Assembly (NCBI RefSeq): GCF_964204865.1
Contig: NC_135261.1
Location: 12,090,001-12,154,000 of the forward strand
DNA length: 64,000 nucleotides
DNA from: Styela clava
Taxonomy: Eukaryota
Reading direction: 5' to 3'
Shown: piece by piece, positions 8,154 to 63,545 of the stretch
Position numbering within the stretch: the stretch's first letter is position 1
Layout: the number at the start of each line of letters is the position of its first letter
Notes under the pieces: generated by a model
What the model saw: the letters and a program-made list of their open reading frames with translations, nothing else
Database searches by the model: none
What the model was told of the DNA's origin: nothing
Position numbers and translations under genes: made by a program

Positions 8154-11100
8154 TTACTCGTGACTAGATGGATTTTCTGCTCTCATGGAATTTGGACCTT
8201 TTATATGTTGTGAGTGTGGCTCTATCATATATGATGTGCAAAGTGCTATGGCCATGATGGTTACGTGACTGATCACAATCATTGCAAAATACAATCGCAG
8301 AAAAAATTTATCCATCATTAGAGCAATTTTCTTCCACTCGTTTTCCATTTCTGAATCAATATTCTTCTCTCTTACGTCGTTGATTACATCTTTCATTGTA
8401 TCCAAAACATCAGTTATTTTTCCGAAAATTTCAACCATGTCTGTGTCATTTTTGAGTTTCTTTTTATGAGATTGTAAATTTTCTTCACGTTTATCTGTCG
8501 TCCTGTGAGACGAGTTTCTATTTTGATCTGGGAATCGGTTACGTCTTTTTCGAAAAATAGGTGCTCTAGATTCACTATATGTACATTGTGGTATGCGAAA
8601 TAGAGATTTATCCTCGCCCGTAGGACCACCGTCTGCCCTAATTTCATTTCGATCGTATAGATATTTTCTGAAATGTTTTTTTTGCTAGAAAGAACAAAAA
8701 AGGTATTATTTGACAATGGAATAGATTCTTTTCATAGTTATCTCACAATACAAAAAATATCCTATACAAATATGAATTCAATAACATAAAAACGAGATTA
8801 TCGGTTAGAGACCGAAGACTTATCGATCGAAAGTTAGGGGATCCCCCAAAACAGCGCTCTTACTCCATAGTGACACCTTGTGTCACATCACTAATTAATT
8901 AATAACCTGCTAATTATACGACATAATTCATCCAAAATCAATAGGCTTCTGGTAAGACATATGATGAATGCACATGCAAAATCTGGAGCAGATTCAATCT
9001 CGCTTTCGTGAGATATCGCGTGCATCTAACAGACAGACAAACAAACAGACAGACAAATACCTATCAACATACTAACCGATTAAAATCGATAAGTAATTAG
9101 CCGCGTCACTTACCGGATACCGATTCATGCTTACTTGTGAACCCATTTTCAAAGGTGGAGTTATACATTCTCTGAACAGTGATCCATCACTAAGCGATCC
9201 TGGCGAAACATCATTTACACATTCATCGCATCTATTCAATCTTGCACTTCTTTTAATTGAAAATACTCTTGATCTTTGGTACGGGGGAGAAGAATGATCG
9301 CCATATAAATGCAGTTTGCTGTGTCGAAAATGGTATTCTCTCTTATTTATAATTCTACCGCCAGGTGGCGATGTGTGTTCATCTACTTCTTTCAAACACG
9401 ACAGCATGACGTTACATAAACAACTCTTTGCTACGCGCGGTCGTGGAGATTTGTCTCTATTAGTGGATTTTTTATCGGAAATTCTACCAACACCTAAAAT
9501 AAAATGAGTGGACAATAACAAGTGTAACAACAAGAAGATAAGTTTAAAAATGCTTCCAAAACGCTTTAAAATTCATTGATTACCCGTTGCTTGTTGCTTG
9601 TGGGTTGTATAGAAGTGGGCTGGTTTTGACATTTTCTAGCAGGTATTATTTATCTTTTCTAATTCTCTTCTTTATACTTTGCGCTGTTAACATTTTTAAA
9701 TTATGTGATAGAAGTATCCGTAAACATTATTCACTCTACCAGATTTCTGATCTCCCAAAAAATCTCTAAATTCTTCGAGTTGAGTAACATCAAAAAAGCA
9801 ACAACGACCAAGTTGAAACAAAAATGTTTTGATCCACGTCGGAACCGGTTTACACGGATGATAATATAACCGAAGTACAAGAACTGTCATCAACAAATTT
9901 ACCGCAAGTAGGAAGATACATATCACGTAATACGTCCCTAAAATGAAAATATATGGTATCAGTTAATCAAATTCTTTCTATAGATGATGCTTTATTCATA
10001 ACATTTTTTCGTCTTACCTAAATAAGGTCCAGTCGAAGCTGGAAACATTTCACAAACTGTTAGAAGAAATACCATAAATGTCAAAAGTATTGTAATCTGC
10101 AATCCTACTCTTTCACCGCTATCTGGAGGAAGAAAAAATCCCAGCAGAGCAATTGATGTCAAAAGGATGCTGAATAATTTAAAAATAAGGAATAATTTGT
10201 TTTTTCATTATTTTGCTTGATAGTGGCTGAATGTTTTGAGTTTGTAGGCTAGACATTGGGTTCAAGCTTTGGTTCGTCACGCCAACCTCCTCGAAAAAAA
10301 TAAATATAACAACCCGAATAGACTATCCGTGTAGTCTTTAATTAATGCTCCAATCACTTAAAATAATCATGTTTTCATCTATCAGTAGTAAATTGTTTTC
10401 CCAGAGTCTTGTTAGAAGCAAAGATGCATGCGGTTTTTATTTATGAGAGGAAATGAAATAAAATGAGCATATAAGACTTATGGTTATGGTGTTCTATTTG
10501 ATCAACATCAATATTGAGCAATTAATTATAAAATAGTTAATCACTCAAAGGGCTCTGTCACAAATTCATAAAATGTAATCGTTTTTTCTACCTTGGAAAC
10601 ATCATGCTTTGCATGTAGAAAGATGAATTTCTTCTTAGTGTAACTGTAAAAACAACTTCTGGCCAGTCAGTATAATCAGAAGCAGATTCCACCATTATGC
10701 TCGAATAATTTGCAGTCTGAACAAAACGATCGTAAATAGTAAGTACTTCAGCGATTCATTTGTTTCGAAAACTAATCTCAGAACAACCATTATTTGATAA
10801 TCAGTTAAATATAGGTTATTGTAAAATTCTCGCGAAATAAATCATGTAATCGTATAAACCTTTGAAGAATGAAAATTGAAGTAATATATATAGGTATCAT
10901 AATGTCTTTCTCTATGATATAATATGCTTGTAATAATTATTAGAATACGAAACTGAAAACCAAACAGCTAAACTGTTAAACTAAAAAAGTTTGAATAGAA
11001 ATTATAAACAATGGATAAACTAAAAAAAATATTTTGTGTAAAGCATGCCGTAATCACTTTTTAACCTCGGAATACTAATATACTTTAAATACAACGTCAA

Positions 11101-24422: not shown

Positions 24423-26887
24423 ATGAATTTGAAAATCTTAATATTATTTGCTGTTATGAATTGGATAATAACTATATACGCTCATGGAGATTATGGTTCA
24501 ATTCTAGCGGAGCAATTGGATCACTATTGCAATTCACGGGAAGGATCTTCTTCCGGACAACCCCTAAGGGTTGGTAAAGCTGGCCCAAGAGGTTTACCAG
24601 GACCTCGTGGTTCGGTGAATTACACAGTTGTTGACGAAATGATCACAAGACGACTTAAAGGTTGTATTACGTTTGTATTTGTCAATTAAATTTCATATCA
24701 AATAATCTATTTTTGACATTTTTGTAATATCACTGCATTCAGTACTCTTTTCTTCAACCAATTGTGGAGTTCATTTTATTACTTTCTGTATGTACAGTGT
24801 AAACAGTGTGTTTTACCCGTGCTTTGCGATTTGATTTCGTCATGAAAGTCCCGGTCAATTTAATACCGAGCTACAGGCCAGATTGGAATTCGAACAAAAT
24901 ACCACGAGCGAATGAACCGCATCATTGATCATGCCTTCACTCAGGCCAGTTAAATGACACGACCCAAGGCATTTTCACGTGATCCAAATAAATTGAATAC
25001 GACATTTTTTTTTGCTTCATGTATCATGTTAACAGCGCATTCTAAAACAAGACGGACGAACTGCGTTCAAGTCACCAAAGATTCTGCTAAAATTAAAAAT
25101 GAAACTGGCGGAGTGTTTGATATTTATCCAGGAAAATCCGGGAGAAAGATGGAAGTTTATTGTGATCTGACTACCGATGGTGGGGGATGAACGGTAAGTA
25201 GTAAGAGATATCCCACGAGCAAGATTGAAAATTTTAGAAACTTAACAATTGCAAGAATTTAATGATAATGTCACATTGAAAACTAATAATGAGAAATATC
25301 AACTGTGATTCTAAACCTTTGCATTATTTTATTCAGGTTTTCCAGAGACGTATTGACGGAAGTCTTAATTTCAATAGAAACTGGGTAGATTATGTTGCTG
25401 GGTTTGGAAATCCTCAACATGAATTTTGGATGGGTAAGTTGATTTTGAAAAGTTCGAAAGCTAAACCAATCATATTTCATATATACCGGTATAAATATAT
25501 AATAAATGCGTAGGTTATTTGAGTTGATTCCTCTCATTTTTAATTGGATGGTGATATGAAAAAGTTACTTCAAATTGATATTTAAACCTGCAATGCTAAT
25601 TTATTATATATAACTGATTATTATATACATTCGATTAACCGTTTAGGTCTAGAGCAGTGCTCTTCAACCGGGTATACGGTATACCCAAGTGTATACCAGA
25701 CCATAAGTTGGGTATACAACTGATAAAGGGTATACGAAAGGTGTACAGCCTATAAAATATTCAATTGGATACAACAATGCAAACGCGGCGCACATGAAAT
25801 GTAAAATGTTATTAACGCTAAGAACCGACGTGAGCACGTTGTTACATCACAAATTATATAAATAATACGGGCATGTGTCGAACATTATTCCCGTCGACGC
25901 TAAGGCAGTCAGTCAAATTTATAACTTGCAGTCACTAGCCTATTAGATTGCATGATGATATTGCAGTACAATATGTGCTTAAAATTCATTGTTTATTTGA
26001 GCCTTAAATAAACATTGGTATTTGTAAGGTATACAAAGTTCTTGAAAAACTGTAAAAGGTATACTTCGATAAAAAGGTTGAAGAACACTGGTCTAGAGAA
26101 GCTACATCGTCTCACTACTCGAGGAAAATCAGAATTGCGAATCGATTTTGAAGACTGGAACGGAAGGAAGGGATATGCTTCATGTACGTAATATATATTG
26201 TCAACCATAGTTGAGTTATTTTAATCAACATAATTTAATCATTAAAGCAAATCCTAAAATTTCAGTGTTTTCATTTAATATGACAATTCTCAATGTCTCC
26301 TCAAACACCTGGAAATAATTTAAAGGCGAGGCAAAAATGAATAGCCAGAATATAAAAAAAAGTAATAATAATATTCAGTCAGCCAGTTTTGTGAGTACTT
26401 AGGAACATCTCATGCACTTAACCATTAGTTAAGAAATAATATAATTCGTTTTAATGTTCTTGTCTCCATTCGTATTGATATTATTGTATTATTGCTCACG
26501 TATAAAAATATTCGTTATCATTTATCAAAGCATAAAGCATTTACTTTCAGTATATTTTCTATTGGAGATGCGTCAACAAAATATCGACTCAACGTCGGAG
26601 GATATTCAGGCACGGCGGGAGACTCTCTTACTGCTCATACCAAGCAGAAGTTTTCCACCCCGGATCAGGATAACGATCCTCATTCATTAAATTGCGCCAG
26701 AAATCACAACAGTGCGTGGTGGTACAAGAACGGCTGCCATGTTTCCAATCTTAATGGGCAATACGTGAAATTTGTTGGCAAGTACGCTACTAGCGGTAAA
26801 GCATATGGAATCGAATGGTTCAGCTGGAATAATGCTTATTGCTATTCAATGAAATTCGTTGAAATGAAACTCCGACCATCATATTAA
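24423..26887 (+). pseudogene. Ficolin-like gene copy 1 (signal peptide, 5 Gly-X-Y triplets, fibrinogen domain), disrupted
   Basis: Exons 24423-24660, 25036-25193, 25337-25433, 25647-26187 (split by a MITE) and 26551-26887. In-frame TGA at 25188-25190 where the paralog has TGG (GGGWT). A 436-bp MITE sits 8 nt into exon 4. Confidence 0.88.
25655..26090. mobile_element. hAT (Charlie-like) MITE inserted in ficolin-1 exon 4
   Basis: TIR CAGTGCTCTTCAACC / GGTTGAAGAACACTG, with a perfect TSD GTCTAGAG at 25647-25654 and 26091-26098. The paralog shows the empty site GTCTAGAAAAG at 31036. Confidence 0.93.
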
Positions 26888-45338: not shown

Positions 45339-45466
45339 TTGATGAGATATCTTGGACTTGACAATCTTCACGTGATTCTGGGAACAGCTAATTACTGGGA
45401 AATAAAATTGACAATATTCCATCCAAAATATCATCATCTAGGTGTGAGCAACGATTTATTCTGAAA
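45339..45466 (+). pseudogene. Relic exon 3 of a GNAT (AANAT-like) paralog
   Basis: A 128-nt AG..GT-bounded exon, the same length as exon 3 of the paralogs. It reads LMRYLGLDNLHVILGTANYWEIKLTIFHPKYHHLGVSNDLF* with an in-frame TGA. Other exons were not confidently found. Confidence 0.8.
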
Positions 45467-45976
45467 GTATGTAACGATAGCATTATGAATGAAACATTTT
45501 TATAACATCACATTAACAAATAATCACATACTTAATCGGATATTGAAATTGACCAAATTTTTAGGGCCTATGTTATGTTATGACAGCCTTCATCCGTTTA
45601 CTATCGAACGTCACACTTGTCGCCATCAACTTGGATATGAGATAAGTCCCATTTACTCTAAATTTGTGTTTACCAATTGTAATGGAGCAGATCTCTTAGC
45701 AAAAAAAACTTTATATCGTTGAATTATATAGACCCCTGCTATTCAAACATAAGCAAACGTTACATCGATTACACTGAAAGACCCCCAAATACTGCCTCGA
45801 ACCAGTTGTGTGTTTTGCAACAGGGAGAATACAGTAATTTATTTGCGCAAAATACAATATACACATAAAGTATTTGAGTCTAGGCAAGCCCGATGAAGCA
45901 TATTATCACGTAACAAATGCAATTTTTTCCTCTGCCAAGGTTTAAAAATGAAGTGCCGAATACTGCGTGTCCCGAC

Positions 45977-47054
45977 CTAGATTGCCATATTGGCCCTCTC
46001 AACGCCAAATTTCACAATTTTGGCTTTTTTGAAACGCGTTTGGCGTCAGAATTTCCATTTTTTTGTTCATTCTACTGTCTATTATTAAAATAATTTAAAA
46101 TACAATACAGAAATTTATTGTGCAACAATAGAAAGCTCAGCTACTCAACATTTGAATTTTCCCTTAAACACAATCATTCAAAAAGAAGCCAACAATGACA
46201 TACATGTGCTATCGATTAGGTTGAATTTTTGCAGCCGCTCGGACAGATGTTCAAGCAGGCTTTGTTTTCATAGTTTTGCGTTACTGTGTCATTTGTCAGT
46301 TTTTATTTATGTTTTCAAAAAATAGCTGTACGCGTTAATTCAGTAATTGTTATTTTGCCTTCCGAGGAGCTTTAGTTTGTTTGCGGTAATCAAAATTCTC
46401 GTAAACGACGTGATTATCTAGGCTAGAATCATATATCAGTAGACTATCTGTGCAAGCGGCACGCGGTTAAATAATTCTAGTAAAAATGATGCCTTCAAAC
46501 ATGTGAACCAGTTTATATTCGCCAACACTTCGAAACAATCATAAAAAAATTTCAATAGTTAAAATATCGGGAAATTTTCTGAGGTATATATATCGCAAGT
46601 TCAAATTGAAACATGTACATTTATCCGTCCTAAAGCGGTTCACATGGTGTATAGTATATATCTGAATTAATAATGCTGTCCGCTTAATATTTCCTTTTTT
46701 AGCTTTTTGATGCTTTTAAATTTTTTATGTAGATGTCAGCTTGACTGCATTAAGTCGGATATATATTTCAATTCTGCCATTCAATAATTCTCCTTAGTTG
46801 TAACCCTTGATTGTGCTGAAGTGGAAATTGTCATGATAGCAACCAAAACTACAAATTTTAGTAAAATTTAGCATTTGATGTGGCTCACTAAATCACTTGT
46901 TGGCTCTAAATCAGCATATTGCGAACTGTGCAAATCCACTATTGTGCTAGGTGTTCCAATTCTGTCAAATCCTGGGGTTTTTGTACTTCTTAAAATTGCT
47001 GGCTTTTTCTGGCTTGATTCGGCTTTTTTTCATCACCGGGATCTGGCAACCCAG
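45977..47054. mobile_element. Old hAT-like non-autonomous element
   Basis: CTAGATTGCCATAT.. / ..ATCTGGCAACCCAG, with degenerate flanks GTCCCGAC and GTCTAGAA. Confidence 0.55.
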
Positions 47055-48767
47055 GTCTAGAATGACAAACGATCCTACAACAACTAATTTTAGGCAAGCG
47101 GAGAATCGCGTTTGGGTGGAAATAGTAAATTAGATACTGAAGTTTGAGCAGTCATGTAACATTCAAGTTTGAGAATATTTATTTTTCGCTGTTTGGATAA
47201 TACTTGGCCAGGTTTCTTGGAGAACACTTATTTCAACACTTACGACTAAAAATTAGGCACGTTCTTTATCTGAATTGTATGATTTAAATGAATCTTAAAT
47301 AAATAATGAAACTGTTGCTGTTAGTGTTCCAAATAATTGCATTTATTATTTTTTCAACTTTTTTCTGAAATTATCTGTCAAAAATGAACCACAATAGTTA
47401 TATATATATAAGAAATGAAAGTGTAACTACATATATTATTTAATAAAAATATCTGCCATAAGATATGCTTGATATCAAGTTCAAGTTTTGGAGAATGATG
47501 ATGACCACATAATTGACTATACTATAATTTTGAATTAATAATTAACAAACTATAATTTTATTGAAAAAAAAACACCGGTTAAAAAAGTCGTATATTTAAT
47601 TAACTATAGTAACAAAACGATCCTTTCAAATAAACCACGGATTACAGGAACCAGAACCTCAAAATTTTTTTTCAATAAAAATGATTACTTTGTACATTGC
47701 TATGCGTATTTCCATTTAGAACTACACTAAATTTAAACGAAAATGATTGCGCTTTTTGAATGTTTGCTACATGCAACGTCTTTGTGAACTTTCTCTGCAC
47801 TTGAACTGATTGATCTTCGATATTCAAGTTGATATTTTGGAGGATAATTCAGACGACATCACAATGTAGTCAGTCATGCGGTTAGTAGAGCCCAAAGCGT
47901 ATGCATGATAGAAAAAATAATAACAATGAATACTTCGCTATACAGGTTGTAGGATTAAATGCTGGTGGAGCACAAGTTTAGCATTCTAAAGTTGGATTAG
48001 CATGTACAATAGACGATAGTATTATATTTTAAAAACGAATTGTTGACTAGAATTTTATTCACCAACATATTTTCATTTTTGTGTAAGTTAGCTCTGGCAT
48101 ACTATTTCGGGTTGGCCCCCAACATGAATATCTCATCTTTTCAGGTAAGGATCAATATTAAAAATACATATAGAAACAAGCTTATGATTGAAGTTGATAT
48201 TAGATGCTTTCGTTCCCTTTTGCCTAGGTTTATTCGTTTGATATCGGAGAAACTGTGTCACCCTTCCCGTTGTTTTTGTGTTTATCGATACCTTCTTGTT
48301 GGTATTAAATTTGATAAATTGTGCGCATAAATTTATGTTTTTATTGAAAGGGGTAATTGATCTTAGGTAATTCAATTTAGGGGTAACAATATTATAAAAA
48401 GGAAACGGCCGTACTAGCTAGTAGGCGGTAGCTAGTGAATGTAGTTTTATCTACCAGAGTTCACATTATTACTTGTAGAGATGTAGACGTAATGCAAAAT
48501 TCAGATGAGATGAAGATGATTCTAAATACTTTCAACAAGCCCATTTAAAACAAGTGGAGGTGATGTGGCTGATGAATAATGCTTTTATTGCTTGTTCTGG
48601 TTCATTTTTTTTATATTCAATGGCTTTAAGGAAAAATGTGAAATACAAGTTACAGGCGGTTGTGTGCCGAAAAATATATAAAAAATAATCAATATCGAGT
48701 ATATTTCTTTAGTCAAGTAAATTTGATGTTTTATTTAATGAATAAATAATAGTTTTATTGTTTATTC

Positions 48768-48771
<4 letters not shown>

Positions 48772-48806
<35 letters not shown>
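48772..48806. repeat. (TA)n microsatellite
   Basis: Uninterrupted TA dinucleotide run. Confidence 0.95.
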
Positions 48807-48809
<3 letters not shown>

Positions 48810-48842
48810 CTTCAACCAAATGTATCGAAAGCTTTAAAAAAC

Positions 48843-51800
48843 AAATTTAAAATTCTTACTTTAAATGATGTTGAATCAGTTGGTAAACTTTTACAAGAGC
48901 ACTACACACCCAAGTTCCCTCTGCCAAAGAATCAAAAACGAAGATCTACGGAAAACATATTATTCACGTGTTGGGTTATATAATACGCATTTCCATGGTT
49001 TATTGTTTAATCAAACAAAATATATTGTGCTGTATGAATCAACTTAATGAATGAATGAACTTTCTGTAAATTTTCAAAATGAATAATAATAATTGTACGT
49101 ATCGTGTGCTCTCCATCATCATGAAATATCTTATTATTGAAAATATATTATATTGGACTGCTACAGAGTTTCCAGCGTTTTATATTTAGAGAAAGTTTGA
49201 TGCGAATGTATAGGCTTTTTTTGTTTGTTGTTGTTTTTTTGTTAGTTTGTTGTTGAACATCTAACACCACCGAAACCTAAATTTCAGTCTTCCGCTGAAC
49301 ATCAAAAACCGTAGAAACTATAAGATCGACCAGAAAGTTTAAGGCGAAAGAAAATATTGAAATCTTTTTTTTCCAGCCATTCCTGAAACAACTGAACTCA
49401 ATTGGTGCATTCAATGAATCGGGGCAGTCGGTTGCCGTTAAAGTTGATGTCAAACATGATTTAGAAGAGAATAATATTCAAAAAGACATTGAAACAACAC
49501 GAAAAGTTTCAGGCCATTCATCGGGTGAGTATGAGTCTATAGTGATAAATAATTAGAGAAACAAATGACTACTGTGCAAAGATACCACTCCATTCTCCAT
49601 ATACATTGTCGTGGCGGAAAATCCGCCAAACATACTAGGAGTTAATTGTAGCCTATATAAACATATATTCGAGCTTTCCTATTAATTACAATAACGTTAG
49701 GTTGTGCAGTACAGTATTATAAACACAGCTGCACAAAATGCATTTATTCATTTATCTGTATGTGATAAAGTTGATTCAAATGTGCTTATGAATATGCGTT
49801 TTGCTCTGACCTAAAATGAAAAATAATCCATTTAAATGAAATTGCGGTATGTAAGGGGATATATATAGAAGCTTCAACAAGTGACAGTTGTATTTATATT
49901 TCACACAATTTTACTCAAATTAATTTTATTGGACGTTGAAATTAACTTCGGGACCAGTCAAAAGTGTTTGAAATATCAAAAAGTTAAAATCTGTACGAAA
50001 CTTGTGTCAAAACTGTGCGCCGATTTTTGCGTACCATTCAATGATTTAAAACTTACCCTAAATTCAAATATTTAATTTTGATTCAATTTATGTGACAATC
50101 CTTACTCGCAATACAGACAATAGGAATATCTTAACGAAAAGTCCAAATGCTCCTATTTCATGCTTTATTGAAGTTTAGCAACTTTGGTAGTGATAACAGT
50201 ACTCTATTTCATTTGGTACTCTCCTTGGACAAAAACGCCAGAAATAGGAGAAATGTCCCTTGTCTATTGGCAGAGTTGAGAGCTATTATTCTAATTAGTC
50301 GCGTCAAATTCATTCATGATAAAAAAAAATACAAGGATAAGATTTCTATTTGCATCACAGAAAAGAAGAAAGTCGGAAAGAGAATTAATATTATAGCGAA
50401 CCACTACCTCTCGTTCTGTTTCAACTCGCATGAGTAGTTCTGTGAAAATAGTTATTCAGATATTTGTTCCATATGTCAGTATGACTGTACGTTTGATGAA
50501 TGGAGGACCAGTCGCGATAGATCGAAATTTAAATATATCACTGGCCAGTTTGCATACTAGTAGCGTAGATATTATTACCTATCAATATGGTATAGCCAGG
50601 TACGATACTGGTATCAACCAGTCTTGAAAGCATACTTTGTATTTCTTGTACGCCCTAGAAACAAGAATCCTTTATTACTGCCATTCGTGGGAATTCATGT
50701 ACCGATGAGCAGTCGGCCAAAATCTGTTAGCCTGCTATACTACTTGAGTTTTCCATCCGATTTCGTGAGTTTACAAAATTAAAAATAATTGTGTAAATAA
50801 AACAAAAGAGCGACTGAATCCATCGTCTCATCAGGCTACGATGCCGGAAGCTGGAAAATCGTCCTCTACTGTAACATTTGTCAATGGAAAATCGTCCTCT
50901 ACTGTAACATTTGTCAATGCTATTTGCGTTATTCTTATATTTTTGAAAAACGAGTTTTCAGCTTTTTTAGATAGCTTAATCACATAGCAAAAACGGCCTC
51001 CTGTTTGGGTACCAATACATGTTGGGGTATGAAAATATCAGCATCCAAATCATATATTTGGATGGACGAAAAATCAACAATCGTTCAGGTGTTTTAGCAA
51101 TTTCCTCCCAAATATTAATCCCTTAACTACGAGATTCAAAAAGGTTCCGCAAAAGATTTATATATTTCAAATCAATTCTCAGCCTCTCCAATATCTCGTA
51201 GTCAATGAATCGCCTCTCATTCTCGAAACAGCTGAATTCTGGGAAATGAAAATGACAACAGTACACGAAAAATATCGTGATTCTGGAGTGGCAACGGAGT
51301 TATTTTGGAAGTAAGAGTAACTTGTTTGATGATATACATTTCTAAAAATAGATTATTTGTCTGAATAGAAAACGAAGTTATCTGCAATTAAATAGAAAAC
51401 GAAATGATTACCATTTGCGCAAGGTCGACACTCGAATGTAATTATTCGTGATAAATAAAGTCACCTCAATCTATTGTGCACCTGCGTTATTCAACCGTAT
51501 TCCGCCACTTCAACAGGAGTTTATAAAATCGTGTAGGCTATGCCGAATCCAAAATGCTCCAAGAATTTCGAATAGTGGTTTCCTGGATCTGAATTGAAAA
51601 CACTTCATGCTGTTTAGTTGAAATGCAGCAAGTATCGTATTTTACGGATTTTAAAACCCCCTTTAAATCCCCTTTTTCTCAAAAAACGAACGTGCGCCTT
51701 CTAAGCGGAGCCGACCGATTGGCATGCTGAACATATGCACAATATAACCAAAAATTCGTTTTGATTATATGTAAAATAATTATTATGACTATTCTAGTTT

Positions 51801-52191
51801 TGCTGTTATAGTTTGACAGATATGTTTCAAGTGAATTGATCAATATCGCATTCTTAATGAGCATTATTTGATAATGTGAATCGTAATATTCGTAGTAGGT
51901 TGCAAGACCTTCTTGTTGGGATAAAAGTAACTGAACAATGGAGGTGGAATTAAAATCTTGAATATTTTCTGCAGAAGCGTTGAACACGCCAAGCGCAAGG
52001 GAATTAAAAAACTTGTCGGTTTCCAAACTTACGAACAACCACGAGAAAATCCTCGCGGGCTACATGTTATAAAGCGAATTGAACTGAGTGAATACATAGA
52101 CTCTGAAACAGGAGAAAAGTTATTTTCTGGATTGAAGCCACCGAATCATGTACAAGTTCTTTATGGATATAACGTAGATGATGACGCATAG
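48843..52191 (+). pseudogene. GNAT (insect-type AANAT-like) paralog A, probable pseudogene
   Basis: Exons ~48843-48974, 49377-49524, 51183-51310 and 51975-52191 are homologous to paralogs B and C. There is no in-frame ATG, exon 1 has an ~8-nt deletion, and exon 2 is 148 nt (frameshift). Exons 3 and 4 are still open. Confidence 0.8.
50852..50919. repeat. 33-bp perfect tandem duplication
   Basis: TGGAAAATCGTCCTCTACTGTAACATTTGTCAA occurs twice. Confidence 0.95.
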
Positions 52192-53353
52192 TTTTATTCT
52201 TTTGTTCAAACGATCGGAAAAGCATTTGAGAAAAAGGGAAAGGTTGTATAGATGTACAGATGTATCCTCACCTGCTTGTGCTTACCCCCCCCCCCTCCCC
52301 CCGTACTATTATTGGACTATGTTAGCGGAGTAAACCCCAACTGACTTCGTCAGAGGTCAATAAGCACACAATATATTGCAATGCCAATGTTCGTATACTT
52401 TGAAGTTGCGCGATCAAACAGGTATATTGAAATATATCCTTGAACCTTAATACCAGTTATGCGGTAAAAAACCAAATCAGTAATAATGCAAAAACATGAA
52501 AAACACTATATTCTCAAATCTCGAATGGTAGCCGGAAACACGTCACAGGTCGATACAAAAAATCTTTGCATAAAAAGTAAAGCGATTTACTACGATAAAC
52601 CACCATCAAATTGCTAAAATGACATATTTTCATTGAATGCAACATACTATTAATACAAAGGGGTCAAATAACAATAAAATCCATAATTACATTCCACATT
52701 CGCTACAACTGAAAATAAAGTCAAACAGAATGCTGACTTTAGGGTATTACTGTAACACGCTAGCACTAGAATTGACACTGATCACGTCTGGCGATTTGTT
52801 TGAATAAACTCACACAAGTGTACATCAGGTTACACAGATGACGAACATATTGCCAGTTGGTAATGATTAACTTCATATTGGCTGAAATCAGTATATACCT
52901 GGCACTGTACTTTTGTTCAATAAGCTATTCTGTTATTCTGTTATTTCGTTTACTATAAGTTTTCAGTAATTTATATATAATAATAATATGACAAATACTA
53001 CGTCAAACTAATAAAATTAATTTACGTTAGATTTTGTTCAGTAAAATGTATAGCGAGAGCTCCCCTCGAAGAAATGAGAGCGCGTCTTTCTGCTTTAAAT
53101 GTATATGTTGCAGTGAACTAACAAACACGTAGCTTATATAATACACGAACACGCACAGAAAGTGTCAGCAAGTAAAATTTACAATGGAATGTAGTTATTA
53201 TTAAACGCGGTCGGTATTAAAGAAAAGAAAATTGTGAACAAACTTTTATTTTAGAAGAAATGGGAAACAATATATTAGATAAACACACAAGTGGTTGTTG
53301 TTGAAAATTGTACCCGGGTTGTATCTTCGGAAAAATTGGTAATAGCTTTGAGC

Positions 53354-55765
53354 ATGAACCTCCGTTACAGAATTCTTACAATAAATGATTCGGCAGCTGT
53401 TCGTAAACTTTTGGAAGAACAGTATATTCCTACAAATCATCTTGTAAAACACATTGGAATAGGAAATGATGAACTACGGGATGAATACTATTCACGGGTC
53501 GAAGTAAATATCATTTCGCCATGGACGTTTAAATTTGTTTGAGACCACTTGCGGCCGTCTTCGGTAGCTGACATATATATGTGTGTGTGTGTGTGTTTGT
53601 TAATAACGCTGTAATTGAGCTACGACTCAAGCCCGACATAAAAACGTTGGAATTGGATGGCCCAATATTTGATGTCCAGCTTGAGTTTACAAATGTTTCT
53701 AATGCATGTGTACACTTGACCTGGGAGGCATGTAGATCAGGGCTTCCCAAACTAGGGGCCGCGGCCCTCGAAGGGGCCGCGAAACGAATTTTAGGGGCCG
53801 CAAAGAGAACACCAAATTTACACAAAGTACTCTATCTGTTGTACTTTTAAAATTCAGGTTCAGTCTCATTTTCGGATTTTGCATTCATTTTCTCATTGCA
53901 TATTTCACATATATTATTTATTCTGAATGTATTTTATTTTCTCATTATTGCAAATGATGTGTTTATGAATCAAATTCATTTTACCATTCTATGTTGTTCA
54001 CTTTCTGTTACGTAGGGTCTATTGTTGCGTAACAGAAGAGTTGCAATTTCGTAGGCTGCGGTTTATTCATTTGCTGAAGCGAGATTATCGAACATGGGTG
54101 ATTTTTTAGCATTTTAAAGAAAAACCAGGCAGGGATACGAAATAAAAGTTAACCTTTGCCTTTATTCATTAGGCCTACATGTTTATAAAACCCAAAAGGC
54201 ATAAAGTACACATTAACGACGACAAAATTGTGTTTTTTTTTTGAGGCAGCATATGTTTTGTGTAGGTGCGCCTCAAGTTTCCCTGATAATTTGACGTCGC
54301 ACAAACCGCTGCCTTGTGCTAAATTTGATCAATAAGAGTGAGTAACAATTCCGGATAAGAACCATGCCGTCGGTGGCCAGACATCGTAATTCATCATTTA
54401 GGCATGCATAAACAAACATTGAGCCACGGCTGGACTTTTTATGCAGCAAAAATCATTTGCACCCATTAACCTTAGTAAATATGTGCTTGTTTTTGTTATT
54501 GAGTAGGCCTACTTAAATTTGAGAATTAGCTGTGTCAATAAAATATTAAAAATACATATTTCGAACTGTTTAGCATTACGTGAACAAGGGCCGCGATAAA
54601 TTTCAATTTATAAAATTTATGGGAAGCCCTGATGTATGACCATTTGTGTTGGTGGACCCGTGATTTTCAATTGTTGATGAAACTGTTTATGCACTTTAGC
54701 CATTTTTGAGACAAGGAAATTCACTCGGGGCGTTCGATGAATCAGATCAATTAGTTGCAGTTGTTGTTAATGTTGAACATGAAGAAGAAAGAGAAAAACT
54801 ATTTGATGAAAAAGCGCTGAAATCACAGGAAAATAAAAATAAAAGTGCTGTTTATCGGGTAAATATAAAATAATATTTCTAACATCAAGTTCTTTCAATG
54901 CCATCAATATATATTACATACGTTACGCTAATTGCATATGTAGTCAATTTACTAGGATCTCGTGGTGTAAAAGGTTGATTTATCCAAACTTTAATTAATG
55001 ACAACAATGAATCTTCTATGAACATTATTGTTTAGAGAAAGGGAGAGATGAAATGGAAAACAATTAAAGCCTATTCATTTTATACCGATTATATTTAGTC
55101 TCGTATTTTTCACTAAAATATATTTACCGGGCATGAAGTTTATTCATATATTTTTGGATGTCTCCATAGCTAATCAAACAACTCGGAAAGGATGATCTAC
55201 CTGTCATTTTAGGAACAACTGAGTACTGGGAGCTGAAAATGGCAACAGTCCATCCAAAATATCGTCGATCGGGAGTGGTGAATGAATTGATTCGAAGGTA
55301 AGCGTATATATCATTCGTACATATTATTCACTTCTATGCAACTATAAAATTGGAAGATTATAGAAAAACAAAATTCAATCCCCTTAAACTTTGGCATTTT
55401 AGTTAGTTTTAATAATAAGAACTTGAAAAACGCAAACTACCACCGGTTTCTAGAATGTAGTTCGAAATTTTGGTTTTGGTGCTCTCATTTACATTATTGT
55501 AATTTATTTTCATTGTAGAACCATCGAACTTGCCAAGCTGAAAAATATAAAAAAACTAGTGGGTTCTCAAACTTACGAACAACCTCGAGATAATCCTCTC
55601 AGACTGTATGTTATAAAGCGGATTGAGTTGGGTGAATACATAGACTCCGTGACTGGAAAGAAGATATTTTCTGGATTGAAACCGCCGCATCATGTTCAAA
55701 TATTGTACGGATATGATGTAGAAAAAGATGATGACACTTCTATACATCACAAAAGTCACCTTTAG
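53354..55765 (+). CDS. GNAT N-acetyltransferase, insect-type AANAT-like, paralog B, about 227 aa
   Basis: Exons 53354-53503, 54700-54858, 55170-55297 and 55519-55765 form an open 684-nt frame. Acetyl-CoA motif A TVHPKYRRSGVV, SLGAFDESDQLVAV, and C-terminal EYIDSVTGKKIFSGLKPPH. Confidence 0.87.
53738..54631. mobile_element. hAT MITE in GNAT-B intron 1
   Basis: CAGGGCTTCCCAAA.. / ..TGGGAAGCCCTG, subterminal GGGCCGCG motifs, and imperfect flanks ATGTAGAT / ATGTATGA. Confidence 0.82.
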
Positions 55766-55904
55766 TTCTAATCTTACGTTATTGTTGTACTTTCCAAGGT
55801 AATCCATATCACCCGGACATCAATTACTGTTTAACTAAACGTTAGTCTCTTAACCGACCTGTGTGCTTATGACTGTGTTCGTTGTATATTATTTTACATA
55901 GTTA

Positions 55905-56050
55905 TTGATTTTGGGATTCGAAGTGGACCTATGAATTCTTTTGTTGTTGTTAGTATTCTTCTTATTGTTGGTATTGTTGTGAGAAAAATCGCTTTTTTTT
56001 TGACTACTGAACCAATTGCTTTGATTTTCAGTGATTGAAATGTGTTGTTG
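55905..56050 (-). repeat. Dispersed HINE-like repeat family, reverse-strand partial copy
   Basis: The reverse complement matches the CACTGAAAAT..CAATTG..(AAC)n block of the 33540 and 59101 copies. Confidence 0.45.
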
Positions 56051-56383
56051 TTGCTAAGAGACTATTACATTTTTAGTTCAATATTTCTTTGAGTTTCTTG
56101 GGATTGGCTTGTATGTGTGAGATAGCGTCATCAAAATTAAAAATTGAGCATCTTGTGGCGGTTCCGTGTTTGCTTTCTTTGCTATATGGCATACCGGTAT
56201 TGTTAAAGATTAGATTCCCGTACTACTTTGTTTTCATATATTTGTCGAGTTCATATATTTGAGCATTGCTTTATTGTTGTTTGTCAAACAGTGCATGTTT
56301 GTGTTCATATTTTTTGAAAGTAAACAGGTAAAATTCGTGCCACGATACATATACTGAAATACATAACTAGCTACAGTCTAGAA

Positions 56384-56526
56384 CAGTGGTTCTCAAACTT
56401 CTTTAGTCTCAGAGCAAACCTCAAAGTTGTGAAGAGCCGCACACAAACAACGCAAGTTAAAATTGCAACAAAACTAGGCACGTATTTAAAATACCAAGTC
56501 ATCGTAAGAACAACACACGTAACAAC
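56384..56526 (+). mobile_element. Left end of a hAT (CAGTG-type) element; right end not found
   Basis: Target-like GTCTAGAA followed by CAGTGGTTCTCAAACTT. Confidence 0.55.
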
Positions 56527-57940
56527 TAGGGCTGAGCAAAATTTTCGAACGAATCGAATAATAAAATATTCGAATGGCATTTCACTTACTTATGGCAGAT
56601 TTTTAACCCCGCATGATTGGTGACATGTCATTAACCATTTCTTACATGACCCGAACATAAAATTGATTAAAAATAAATGTTAAAATGAGTTTTCCGCGTT
56701 TCCTCGCGAGAAAGGCGATTGTAGGTCGTTAGAAAACTCGATTTATATGTATAGCATGGATTTAAAAATGACCAGTCAAAGTTTTTACAAAAGCTGGTAT
56801 AAGTTATCTGTATGAAAAACACGTATTAGCTTGTAACCAGATAGGAAATGTCATGTCCTACTCCATTTAAACCACATTGTATTAGCTCTTTAGGGATTCC
56901 CTCCATCCTTCGCCAAGTAATTTTTCGAATACGTAAACATTTTACTCGACCATGCATGGACGTTGAGCCAAGAGTAGATTGTAAAATCAATCGTGAATTT
57001 CGTTGTAACAATGCACACTGACTCGTTCACGAATTGTTGCGTCTATTATCATCGAAAATGATTACAATTGTTAAATTTTGAAGCATTTGGGCAGTAATAA
57101 ATAATGCATGACATAATCAAAATCATAAGGTGAAGTGCTGAATTTGCAAATTCTGTAAATAAAATTGAGCATTACTCAGTAAGTGATTTAGCTATAATAA
57201 CCGCCGGGGTGTTGTTTTGTTGAAAAAAAGTTAAAATGTGAAGGAATTAAATATAAATTTTTGTCTGACCCTCTATTAGTCACAAAGGCCTAGAAATGCC
57301 TTTATTGCCACTTTGTTTAATCGCTATTTTAAAACAACATTCAGGAGTCAAGCAATCGCAAATTTGCTAAGTTTATCTATCTAATACTAAAATAGCACGA
57401 ACACCATAGAAAAGCATGAGAAACCCAATTATAATTTTAATAAATATCTGCATCTCGGTTACCGTTCACTGTGAGCAGGCACGGTTAATTTACAAGCGGT
57501 GATAAGTAAGATCAAAGCCAAGGCCGAGGATAAAACTCAGAATAAGATTAATTTGATTTTGATCAGTCATCAGTCCTTAATATCTTCAACAGCTGTCGCT
57601 GATGTGAACGCACGGGTATACTAGAAATTTAAAACTTCGATATCCGACGACCCCGTAAATGGCGGGAATATAGAATACCAACTTTAGGATATCACCGCCG
57701 AAACGATCGCGGTGACAAAGACAAACAACGATTATGATGAAATTAACCATTAACCAGTAAAAAAAACGCTTTATTGCCGACATTTCAATGTTTCTATCAA
57801 TTTCTAAATGGAGTATTGACCTCCGACGTTTTGTACCCTGTTATGTATAAAAAAAATATATTCATTATTCGACTATCCGGTATTCGTTAAAAATATTCAA
57901 ATTATTCGATTCGAGAAAATATTCGATTTTGTCCACCCTA
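56527..57940. mobile_element. TAGGG-type hAT non-autonomous element related to the 6464 MITE
   Basis: TAGGGCTGAGCAAAATTTTCGAA.. / ..TTCGATTTTGTCCACCCTA with (TCGAA)-rich subterminal blocks. The TSD is degenerate. Confidence 0.65.
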
Positions 57941-59100
57941 ACTAACAGCCTTTTAATTTGGTTTGGTTTTCTAATAAGTCAAAATTTGTTCTAAATAAGT
58001 TCTAAATTTGTCGAAGCGAGTCGTAATTGTGGAGGATGCAAAGTGCAGTAGCTGGTTGAGATGATCGGCAGATATTTCGGGATTTTCGATTACTGAAACA
58101 AAATTAAAATGCTCCAGAAATTAAAGCAATCATTGAGTTATTTGATTTATACATATTATTTGGAAATGCGACAAAAACTGAAAAATCCACGAAACGAGCC
58201 AGTGATTACAGCCATATCTAAAATCTCTCCAAATGAAAAGTGTGTGCATGAGTGGCTTCGTGAACGCTTACTGTTGCGTCACCATTGCATCTTGTAGATT
58301 GAACGCTACGCAAATAAACACGGGGATTCCATTCGACTAACATAACTAATAGACTTTCGCATTTTAATTTCAAGTCAATGATTTAATTTCAAGTCAATGA
58401 TTATTTTTCAATGAAAAATTTCCCTTTGTAAGTAATTAATGTTTTTAGACGAGCTCTGCCGGAAGTCATCGTTTTGCAGCCAGATATTGTTTTTTCCCCT
58501 TTAATATAAATGACTAAATATCGGAGCAATCTAGTAAAGCGATCTAACAATCATGGAAAATATGCCGTACATCAGTAAGACATTTATCTGGTGCGTGTGA
58601 CATCAAACTCACTGAGCGAGACGTCCATTTGGTAGCTACTACTTTTATGCCTGCCATTGAAATAGAATTAACTCGAATATATTTGCGTATTAGTCAAAAA
58701 ATACATAATTTTGAAATTTCAATTCAAGAATAGGAAACATACGAAGTTATAGGAAATTGAAGGCAATGTAACGCGCACTTATTTACGTGTTTACTGTCTT
58801 TCTTTTATCGTTCTCGTACTCGTGTTAATTACCAAGATGCATTTCGTCACATTAAACAATCCGCTTAAATTTAATTAACCAATGAGGCTTATGGAGGCGA
58901 CTTGTCTGTCACGTGTACATTGATACGGGTTATCGAGTCCCATATGACTTGGAGTCAATTGGGTAAAAGTTATTAAGTTAATGGCAACTTCTTTCCTACT
59001 TAGGTAGCTTTCATTGATTAATGAAAAAATGATTGAAAAAAATTAATGTTTCATAAGTCGTGGACGAGACGACAAAAACTTCCCAATCAAAAGCAACAAA

Positions 59101-59381
59101 TACAAGAGAGCTATGCTCAATTATATAGACACGTCACAAGGTGTAGCTATTTTTTATTCTAACACATAAAAAACGAATCTCTTGAAGTCCACAGAAATTT
59201 TTGAAGTAAGTAAAAATAATAGCCTTCTGGCGAAACAATCAATCTTTCACCACTAAAAATTTCAAGCAATTGATCCAGTATTCGAAGAGAAAACCGATTT
59301 TATGATGACGAAGAAGAATGTCAACAAGAACAACAACATAATATCGAAACGATCGTTATGTACACTGACGCGTCCATTAAT
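59101..59381 (+). repeat. Dispersed HINE-like repeat family, copy 2
   Basis: Similar to 33540-33892 (see that entry). Confidence 0.55.
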
Positions 59382-60161
59382 AACATTTTATGAATACGAT
59401 CTACATTGGACTTTGTGTTACTGAATAAGTTCTGTCACACAGATTTTGTCGTAGTTTGCAACACAGAAATATGAAGCAAAATCAAGATATTTTGAGTACA
59501 CGATGATATATCAATTATACAAGCGGTTGCAATAAATCTCGCTGTAATCTTGTGTATGAAGAATCGAGCCGTCACTCCTAACTTTATGACCAGTCAGATT
59601 AAACTATTTATACTGACATTTATTGTACGAGCCCTAATTCTTTGTGTATGAACCAAAGGTTACTAGTTAATTTTTAACCACGATGCTTATATTCCAGTCG
59701 ATGACCGTCGTGTAGGCCTACTAGCAGTCCTCGAATCGCATTTAGTTCAAATTGAGTGGTTAAGCCGTTGTAGCATCATGAATATAATCATTACGATGGC
59801 CAATTGAGCATTACGCTAGGTCGTAGAATGATGTTCAGCGTTACCAATTACCAGTTGTGGTGAGTGCGAAATGTTATGCACATTAGTATATGAAAATAAC
59901 TAGAAATTTAGGTAGATTTGATAAAAATAGCCTGAATCCGTTAAAGACAGAAGTTGAAACGTAATACTGATATATATCAGGGCAAATAAAAAATGACTCT
60001 TAAGACTACCAAATAAATCAATAATATTTCGTTCTTCAAATATAGCACATGATTTGAAAACAAAAACTACTAAGCGCTGTGTAACGTCTGTTGTTTTATC
60101 TACGTGTGGTTGCTGTTCAAAATTGTATTTTGACTTTAGGTAACGTGAAATAGCATGAAGC

Positions 60162-61614
60162 ATGGATCTCAAATACAGAATTCTTACATTAGACGACTTG
60201 AAAGATGTTCGTCAACTTTTGGAAGACCATTATACTAACAAGTTTGCTCTCATGAAATACCTTGGAGTGGAAAATGACGATCTACGTGACACCTACTATT
60301 CGCGTGTTGGGGTTAATATTACATAGTTATATTCTTTTTACATTTTGTAGAACTATCGTGGTTGCAGAAGTTTTCTGTGCTTGCTGATTTGAGATTCTCC
60401 ATTTCCATAAAGCTTATTAATTTGAACATCATATAAAATTTGAAATCACTAATTTACAAGAGTATATATTTAGTTGGCGCATGCAATTTTTTTCCTGCCA
60501 GTCTCTGTTCTCTTACCTGGTTCAATAAAAACTGTTTACTATTGTATATAAAACATGTGTCATATTCGTGGAATAGATCCTTAAGTATTATTCTTTGTTT
60601 CGATGTCAACGTGATTTTCCACTGTTTATGAAATTATTTATAATTTAGCCATTTCTAAAACAAGAAAACTCATTTGGAGGATTTGATGAAACGAAGCAAT
60701 TACTTGCAGTTATTGTTAATGTTAAATATGAGGAAAACGAAAAAATGAATTTTGAAAAGGTGTTGAAATCACAGGGAAACAAAAAGATAGATGCAATTGT
60801 TCGGGTAAATATTAAATATTACTTCTATCATACCGCTTTTCTCCGTGCCATGTTGATAATCCCCAATAAGGTTTCACGATTTTGCCATTTACAAAGAACA
60901 GACCTGTTTAAATTTATGTAATAACTTATATCTTGTCGCCTAGAATTCGGTCAATAATATTCAGTGGTTATGATATTAATAAAACTTTTCTAACGTCTCC
61001 ATAGCTAATGAAACATCTCGGTAAAGATGAACTACCCGCCATTTTGAGAACTACTGAGTATTGGGAGATGAAGATGATAACAGTTCATCCAAAATATCGT
61101 CGCTCGGGAGTGGTAAAGGAATTGATTCGAAAGTAAGTCCAAATGCCATAGTTGTATACCATTTTATAGATCAATAAAAACAAAAGATGTCAGAAAACAA
61201 AGATGCAATTGCGTTTCAATTCGACATTACATTTTACTGCATAAGAAATCGAATGGGCATATATTCTGAAATTTACATATTAAAAAGAGCTATCTTTACT
61301 TTAGTGTTCTCTTCCATAGAAATATCATTTATTTATATTGTAGAACCATCGAACTTGCAAAGCGGAAAAATATTGAAAAACTTGTGTGTTTCCAAACTTA
61401 CGAACAACCACCAGATAATCCTCTTGGATTGTATGTTATAAAACGAATTCAACTGAGCGAATACACAGACTCCGTAACTGGGAAAAAGATATTTTCTGGA
61501 TTGAATCCACCAAACCACGTTCAAATTATGTACGGATATAATGTACAAGAAAATAATAATACCACTTCTGAACATTTCACAGATGTCACAAGTACGTCAT
61601 CTAATATTCGATAA
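60162..61614 (+). CDS. GNAT N-acetyltransferase, insect-type AANAT-like, paralog C, about 234 aa
   Basis: Exons 60162-60311, 60649-60804, 61005-61132 and 61344-61614 form an open 705-nt frame with the same intron positions as paralog B. Motifs TVHPKYRRSGVV and YTDSVTGKKIFSGLNPPNH. Confidence 0.87.
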
Positions 61615-63032: not shown

Positions 63033-63545
63033 TCGTACTGCATTCTAAATATTGACTCATATATTTTCTATCCATTTTTCAAAACGCTGGTATTGCAAAT
63101 ACTAAAATAGAATTGAGTATTAGTATTTATTGGTTTCAAGGTAAAAAAAATTTACCTTAAAATTGACAACAATTTTCATATTTGCACGAATATATATATA
63201 ATATATATATTTTACGGAATTTTTTCCATTGGCGACGCTTCACGTTGGAGGATATTATGGAACAGCAGAAGATTCTCTCTCTTATCATACCGGACAAAAA
63301 TTTTCGACACCGGACCAAGATAACGATCCCCATTCAGCTAACTGCGCTGCGCGTCATAGAGGTGCGTGGTGGTATCACAGTTGTCACATATCCAATCTTA
63401 ATGGAGAATACGCAAAAACTGTTGGAAAGTACATTACCAAAGGTAACGCATATGGAATCGAATGGCATCGCTGGAATAATGCTTACTATACTATTCAATG
63501 AAATCTGTAGAAATGAAGTTTCGACCAGCTTATTGAGAATACAGC
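63033..63545 (+). pseudogene. Displaced partial duplicate of ficolin-2 (intron 4 fragment plus last exon)
   Basis: Aligns with 31586-31669 plus 32514-32955. The acceptor AG has become GG (63216-63217), and there is a 17-nt deletion near 63242 and a 2-nt insertion near 63489. Confidence 0.9.

Follow-up and report, generated by a model that had tools for sequence, protein, structure and literature searches.

The genome of the ascidian Styela clava encodes a clade of insect-type AANATs from which the glutamate of the Asp-Glu-Pro (DEP) motif, the catalytic base of the insect enzymes, has been lost. The clade is represented in a 64,000-nt window of contig NC_135261.1 (positions 12,090,001 to 12,154,000, forward strand), a stretch of AT-rich eukaryotic DNA of 33.5% GC that contains two intact four-exon genes (B and C), a frameshifted copy (A) and a lone-exon relic. 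Genes B and C are spliced, the Glu-less copies fall on a single branch of the family tree, and the proteins evolve under purifying selection. By descent and fold these are insect-type AANATs, yet they depart from the canonical catalytic motifs of that family. We hold it about as likely as not that B and C are cytosolic acyl-CoA-dependent N-acyltransferases of small amines with a relocated base, predicted to be Glu124 of strand β4.

Family placement

The first-pass annotation had assigned the array to the insect AANAT-type family, apart from vertebrate AANAT, and profile and fold searches bear this out. A profile of seven Styela copies run against PDB sequences retrieves ten insect AANATs first (best E value 2.6e-9), the next non-AANAT match being at E 0.003; with the Glu-Pro paralogs described below added to the profile, the insect AANAT match reaches E 1e-20. 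The AlphaFold2 (AF2) model of B, at a predicted local distance difference test score (pLDDT) of 79, has insect AANAT chains in its top 14 Foldseek rows (template modelling score, TM, 0.72-0.78). In VIA-align, its top group spans Z 19.0-22.3 before a drop to 15.9, and comprises chlorovirus A654L, Tribolium AANAT, Dat, AgmNAT, the Ebony C-terminal domain, aaNAT5b and aaNAT7. Fold matches like those of B are obtained with P0002, a copy on C19 (AF2 pLDDT 86), and with the Atlas model of P0009, and the models of B and P0002 match GNAT chains throughout their lists. Helices at 81-85, 93-107 and 113-117 of the model of B agree with an insect-type AANAT. Sheep SNAT (1KUV), a vertebrate AANAT, has the GNAT fold in common but aligns with the model of B at Z 13.3 over 145 residues, below the 19-22 of the insect-type chains; B is thus not closer to SNAT, and vertebrate AANAT is described as a separate family (PMC4394704). 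In Pfam, P0002 and P0013 score above the PF00583 cut-off and B below it, exon-wise Pfam scans are uninformative, and a single-sequence search with P0001 found nothing significant among PDB sequences.

The insect enzymes used for comparison were Aedes aaNAT2 (4FD5) and aaNAT5b (4FD4/5YAG), Drosophila Dat/AANATA (3TE4), Tribolium AANAT (6V3T) and AgmNAT (5K9N). Like these, the Styela proteins are about 220 aa long, with a GNAT fold bearing a helical insert (TM 0.70-0.78, Z 19-22), the Arg and Gly of motif A, Thr where Dat has Ser182, aromatics at the Phe43 and Tyr64 positions, Met at 121, an acid at 142 and a C-terminal Y-x-D hairpin. Unlike them, they lack Glu-Pro, have the equivalents of Ser186 and His220 mostly replaced, end the P-loop in a bulky residue and have a shortened post-β5 helix, which is absent in the model of B; sequence identity is 11-23%. 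The highest VIA-align match is the chlorovirus polyamine acetyltransferase A654L (3QB8; Z 22.3, root-mean-square deviation 2.2, 191 residues aligned; Z 23.1 against P0002), tied with the insect AANATs, with a profile E value of 1.7e-10 and 13-14% identity to the Styela copies.

The Ebony C-terminal domain, which scores Z 20.4 and 21.3 and trails the best matches by about 2, raises the thought of an Ebony-like condensation. Ebony operates with an adenylation-carrier module and not with free CoA; the donor would then be a carrier-protein pantetheine thioester instead of CoA, and the altered post-β5 segment does border the CoA site. We nevertheless consider this most improbable: the Styela genes are stand-alone and single-domain with motif A conserved, the sequence match to Ebony is E 0.006 as against 1e-20 for AANATs, and no partner was seen beside the array (no search aimed at partners was made).

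Insect-type AANATs have been reported in Ciona (two) and Saccoglossus (four) (PMC4394704), and the family in tunicates is therefore already known. Judged by search results, no publication on its expansion in Styela was found.

The active site

Residues were placed in register with Dat from printed alignments and counted over 24 intact copies, which amount to about seven lineages, 15 of the copies being near-identical. The set consists of 23 stop-free four-exon models and the intact intronless gene P0003; three copies with stops, a frameshifted intronless copy and seven incomplete or unmodelled groups lie outside it. As the first-pass annotation had observed, the FxxDEP motif with its catalytic Glu is replaced: the Glu47 equivalent occurs in 0/24, Pro48 in 2/24 and Asp46 in 3/24. 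The Asp46-Arg153 salt bridge is accordingly missing in most copies, though Arg is present in 23/24. At the Ser186 position Ser is found in 4/24, with Pro in B and C, and at the His220 column His is found in 2/24. In contrast to these losses, several Dat residues are retained, namely an aromatic at Phe43 (24/24) and at Tyr64 (24/24), Met121 (21/24), Arg153 (23/24) and, as Thr, Ser182 (23/24, B and C included). In the numbering of the Glu-less proteins, Trp123, Glu124, Tyr/Phe24 and Tyr/Phe46 are present in all 24, Arg135, Gly138 and Thr164 in 23 each, and Met105 in 21. Against the P-loop consensus Q/R-x-x-G-x-G/A (PMC4964394), the first position is Arg in 23/24 (Lys in one) and the Gly is kept in 23/24, while the last position is Met, Leu, Val or Thr in 24/24.

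Remodelling of the post-β5 segment, also proposed from the sequence, is confirmed by the model of B and by alignment counts. Between four and eight residues are absent after β5 in the window subclade. No helix is formed at 164-175 in the model of B, where Dat carries Ser186 and Lys192; the P0002 model has a short, low-confidence helix there. Relative to the conserved His of P-x-P-H in the Glu-Pro paralogs, the His of the C-terminal "PP.H" of Glu-less copies is displaced by one residue toward the C-terminus.

The clade has two invariant acids, Glu124 and Asp188, of which Glu124 alone maps to the active site. It occupies the position of Dat Asp142 and lies four residues before the Leu146 equivalent; in Dat, Asp142 lines the bottleneck of the substrate tunnel, and the residue that holds the acetyl group, through its amide, is Leu146 (PMC7427786). 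The same spacing is found in the histone acetyltransferase GCN5, where a β4 Glu precedes the acetyl-binding backbone amide by four residues: in Tetrahymena GCN5 (TtGCN5), Glu122 might be the base, acting via water, the acetyl-binding residue being Leu126 (PMC4964394). GCN5 otherwise differs from the Styela copies (TM 0.45, no helical insert, protein substrate), and the comparison is a mechanistic analogy only. The GCN5 base register of Glu124, with NatA-type chains in the next fold tier (Z about 14-15), would also fit N-acylation of peptides or proteins by GCN5-like chemistry on lysines or N-termini, with defence peptides as one conceivable target, a reading which we judge very unlikely.

Dat Glu47 is the base (PMC3429931). 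There is precedent for a GNAT dispensing with the canonical glutamate: many GNATs use other bases or none (PMC4964394), and the E29A mutant of AANATL2 stays active, its base being unidentified (PMC6070697). Activity is also reported for another very divergent member of the family, moth LTNAT (PMC13248844). GNATs without a base are known for acceptors of low pKa (PMC4964394), and the Styela proteins might likewise be base-free active acyltransferases of low-pKa or non-alkylamine acceptors (aryl amines, amino sugars, hydroxyls, xenobiotics), with Glu124 only positioning the substrate. The growth in copy number and the variable pocket loop described below would suit a detoxifying or secondary-metabolite family of this kind; the aromatic-pocket residues retained from Dat, however, fit arylalkylamines equally, and we hold a base-free enzyme to be quite unlikely.

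Selection and localisation

The comparison of B with C proposed in the first-pass annotation gives a dN/dS of 0.31 (Nei-Gojobori method, NG86; bootstrap 0.20-0.46), indicating purifying selection. By the same method, 14 of 17 pairs lie at 0.12-0.39, and the other three, at 0.51-0.65, are close pairs with wide intervals. Maximum-likelihood (ML) omega is 0.24 on 21 copies, three identical or short-exon models having been removed beforehand. When nine regions are considered separately, omega is lowest in β4/motif A (0.16) and in the following helix with β5 (0.15), and highest, at 0.62, in the α1-α2 loop, the site of the lost Glu. The loop value equals the highest among 40 randomly drawn 11-codon windows, several of them overlapping the loop, but is below 1, and positive selection was not found; the loop has undergone relaxation or mild diversification, which is not proof of positive selection.

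These constraints bear on whether the proteins are enzymes at all. They could be pseudoenzymes that have lost turnover but retain the fold, and perhaps the ability to bind acyl-CoA or an amine, and that act as binders, sensors or regulators. The joint loss of the Glu47, Pro48, Asp46, Ser186 and His220 equivalents, the bulky last P-loop residue and the missing post-β5 helix of B speak for this, and Glu-to-Ala substitution is reported nearly to abolish four insect enzymes. Set against this are the strong constraint on the strand and loop that bind CoA, which rank with the most conserved regions by omega, and the emergence of a new invariant set, Trp123, Glu124, Met127 and Tyr45, in the active-site strand and pocket. 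Binding alone could also explain both, and on balance we consider loss of catalysis unlikely.

Neither a signal-peptide-like segment nor a hydrophobic N-terminal or membrane segment was found in the Glu-less proteins. They are therefore likely to be cytosolic, and a direct extracellular role is unlikely. The roles earlier put forward for the array (catechol acetylation, matrix hardening, detoxification) are backed by none of these results.

Transcription

Transcription of B and C is supported by splice joints in Logan contigs from runs that we guess to be RNA, none being recorded as such. All three introns of B are skipped at GT..AG in contigs of run X1 and all three introns of C in run X2; two of the introns of C are skipped in run X4, and a single 879-nt contig of run X3 runs spliced across all four exons of C. 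The evidence is drawn from two studies, and the contigs carry neither expression level nor tissue. The pieces listed from runs X7 and X8, which have uniform coverage, read through the introns. Copy A and the relic are covered by none of the listed pieces. Slight depth appears for run X4 in two bins containing copy A exons, and this is not decisive.

The window array

Four co-oriented paralogs with a common 128-nt exon 3 had been noted in the window, two intact, one frameshifted and one reduced to a single exon. All four exons are in place, on the plus strand and bounded by AG..GT, the quoted motifs were found where the first reading had put them, and its description of the copies holds (Table 1). 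Exon matches among the copies have E values of 1e-5 to 1e-62, far above chance. The stop-free product of gene B is 227 aa long and identical to RefSeq XP_077975018.1 (P0010), "uncharacterized protein LOC120330407" of Styela clava; that of gene C is 234 aa and stop-free after splicing. Copy A has no in-frame ATG ahead of exon 1, and no further exon of the relic was found in the window and 39 kb downstream by protein-profile and nhmmer scans. In an older RefSeq model of 494 aa, XP_039253304.1 (P0012), copy B is preceded by exons 2-4 of copy A in one fused protein, probably an annotation artefact, since the newer RefSeq model consists of B alone.

Table 1. Coordinates of acetyltransferase exons and arrays and of other features (window positions unless a locus is named)
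Feature	Position	Strand	Remarks
Relic exon 3, 128 nt	45339..45466	+	AG..GT bounds; TGA near 3' end
Copy A exon 1, limits approximate	48840..48975	+	Frameshift ~48915-48930; no in-frame ATG
Copy A exon 2, 148 nt	49377..49524	+	Frameshift near 49470; open in RefSeq model P0012
Copy A exon 3, 128 nt, open	51183..51310	+	Exon match to other copies
Copy A exon 4, open up to stop	51975..52191	+	
Gene B exon 1, 150 nt, ATG	53354..53503	+	α1-α2 loop without Asp-Glu-Pro
Gene B exon 2, 159 nt	54700..54858	+	Splice joint 53503-54700 in run X1
Gene B exon 3, 128 nt	55170..55297	+	β4 Glu124, motif A
Gene B exon 4, 247 nt, to stop	55519..55765	+	Thr164-Tyr165, shortened post-β5 segment, Y-x-D hairpin
Gene C exon 1, 150 nt	60162..60311	+	Splice evidence
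Gene C exon 2, 156 nt	60649..60804	+	Splice evidence
Gene C exon 3, 128 nt	61005..61132	+	Splice evidence
Gene C exon 4, 271 nt, to stop	61344..61614	+	In 879-nt spliced contig, run X3
23-copy array, two subtypes	G000 C19:4.67-4.94 Mb (L040-L068)		270 kb
Two intronless, early-branching Glu-less copies on C13	L037:6345-6998; L039:4835-5492		One frameshifted
Cys-loop ligand-gated ion channel subunit, last exon	8157-8684	-	PF02932, E 8e-7
Fibrinogen C-terminal domain exon	26429-26884	+	PF00147, E 2.5e-28
Repeat between B and C	58664-59785		Very high contig depth
Apparently broken fibrinogen copy	~63230-63540	+	Just after gene C
Open reading frame (ORF), 302 aa, intronless	L072:1262-2170	-	Adjoins two intronless Glu-Pro genes
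ORFs upstream of LOC120339420	L071:4810-6702	-	LOC120339420 is an intronless Glu-Pro gene

Other features of the window include a Cys-loop ligand-gated ion channel subunit, represented by its last exon, and a fibrinogen C-terminal domain exon; a similar-looking, apparently broken copy of the latter follows gene C, its listed ORF frame giving no PF00147 match, and fibrinogen-domain copies may be interleaved with the acetyltransferase array. The repeat between B and C has very high contig depth in all runs examined, RNA-like ones included, and is likely to be an abundant transcribed repeat or a short mobile element.

Extent and origin of the clade

The last exon of gene B, used as a query, detects 33 genomic loci: five in the array that begins in the window (A-C inside it, D and E past its end), 23 on C19, two on C5, one elsewhere on C16 and two intronless copies on C13. 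Among the RefSeq entries are XP_039258039.2 for a C19 copy and the intronless XP_077973477.1. The tandem birth-and-death mode proposed in the first-pass annotation is upheld by the presence of broken copies in the array and of purifying selection on the survivors. Copies D and E extend the array beyond the window, and in the present assembly both are interrupted by an in-frame stop; since another RefSeq model of copy D (P0011) has Gln in place of the stop, and exon 2 of copy A reads open in P0012, some of the lesions are likely to vary from one individual or assembly to another. On C19, two pairs of copies lying about 95-100 kb apart encode identical proteins, which may reflect a recent block duplication or else an assembly artefact or uncollapsed haplotype. 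A script built 26 four-exon models, 23 of them stop-free; two C19 models have a 141-nt exon 2, probably through the modeller's choice of acceptor.

More distant loci in the same genome were reached with P0003 and P0014 as queries, among them six intronless Glu-Pro ORFs on C5, C10, C13 and C17 and about 12 intron-bearing Glu-Pro loci on C1, C3, C5, C9, C16 and C19. Profile-profile comparison links these Glu-Pro paralogs to the Glu-less clade at 99.8% probability over 209 columns; unlike it, they have Glu-Pro and P-x-P-H, with Ser/Thr at position 182 and in most cases at 186 too. All six intronless ORFs have Glu-Pro and a S/T-S/N-x-Y/F motif after β5. In the intron-bearing loci, examined exon by exon, Glu-Pro is present in 10 of 12 exon-1 matches (one of the others is Asp-Pro, one Gln-Pro), and exon 3 ends at the same position of the motif-A helix as in the Glu-less genes. 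A β4 Glu also occurs in 8 of 13 exon-3 matches of these loci; therefore, both acids could have coexisted before one was lost. The closest known counterparts of the clade also include the two Ciona iaaNATs of Hiragaki et al. 2015 (PMC4394704).

An ML tree of 36 rows places all 28 Glu-less rows on the same side of a branch that is 0.96 long, has 100/99 support and occurs in 100% of bootstrap trees; the tree is unrooted, leaves out the intron-bearing Glu-Pro loci and carries a warning of long branches meeting. The simplest reading of gene structures and tree would be a single loss of the Glu in a four-exon ancestor, followed by expansion. The occurrence of six intronless Glu-Pro genes points to retrocopying or intron loss as a repeated event in this family. 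Two of these six directly adjoin an intronless 302-aa ORF that we take to be E2F-like, and just upstream of another, LOC120339420, are ORFs of what is presumably a hAT-like transposase.

No Glu-less relatives outside Styela clava were found in three word-seeded protein searches and a full scan of 1.84 billion representatives in which the 81-aa last exon was the sole query; the searches are weak, because they missed insect AANATs and even P0002. A further match, P0004, was rejected as a repeat protein. A bacterial or metagenomic donor was also considered, and pattern matches were confirmed in 0/28 and 0/47 cases; the top Atlas feature match, a Bacillota cluster at 0.96-0.97, is tied with arthropod clusters and is a lead only. 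Because Glu-less genes and Glu-Pro paralogs have introns in common, an origin of the clade inside the animal appears the favoured one.

Discussion

The reading that we favour, an active N-acyltransferase with a relocated base, draws on the expression of B and C, the constraint on the CoA site, an invariant Glu at a position known as a base register, the precedent of AANATL2 and the activity of the divergent LTNAT. In such an enzyme, acyl-CoA would bind at motif A and the amine would enter the AANAT tunnel, whose lining keeps counterparts of Dat Phe43, Tyr64 and Met121. Glu124, at the Dat Asp142 position, would take the proton through a water molecule, as in the GCN5 Glu122 register, and the fast-changing α1-α2 loop, released from its role as carrier of the base, may tune substrate choice between copies.

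Several observations weigh against this proposal. The E47A mutant of Dat keeps 0.23% activity despite Asp142, and hence a β4 acid does not rescue Dat (PMC3429931); the corresponding E34A mutant of AgmNAT keeps less than 0.1% of kcat (PMC5647378). Two enzymes with the DEP Glu, aaNAT2 and that of Tribolium, carry a β4 Glu as well, so that Glu124 may only bind substrate. Moreover, Glu124 is one of 29 invariant columns in a sample of few independent lineages; most copies have lost the Asp46, Pro48, Ser186 and His220 equivalents as well; no copy has Gly or Ala at the last P-loop position; and the model of B lacks the helix that bears Ser186 and Lys192 in Dat.

Tandem birth-and-death alone would be ordinary. 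What sets these genes apart is that the DEP Glu is regarded as the catalytic residue by which insect-type AANATs are defined, and that here a whole expressed and selected clade does without it, in a family reported as two genes in Ciona (PMC4394704) that has some 50 loci in another ascidian. More tentatively, and with considerable doubt, a chordate lineage may have moved the base from the α1 loop to the GCN5 β4 position, after which the freed loop diversified over more than 30 copies toward new acceptors, perhaps for the synthesis or neutralisation of ascidian catechol and amine metabolites. The presence of Glu-less and Glu-Pro copies in one genome offers a clean test between a migrated base in a GNAT fold and proteins that merely bind. 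If relocation of the base is the true account, canonical and rewired enzymes in the same genome would constitute a natural before-and-after pair.

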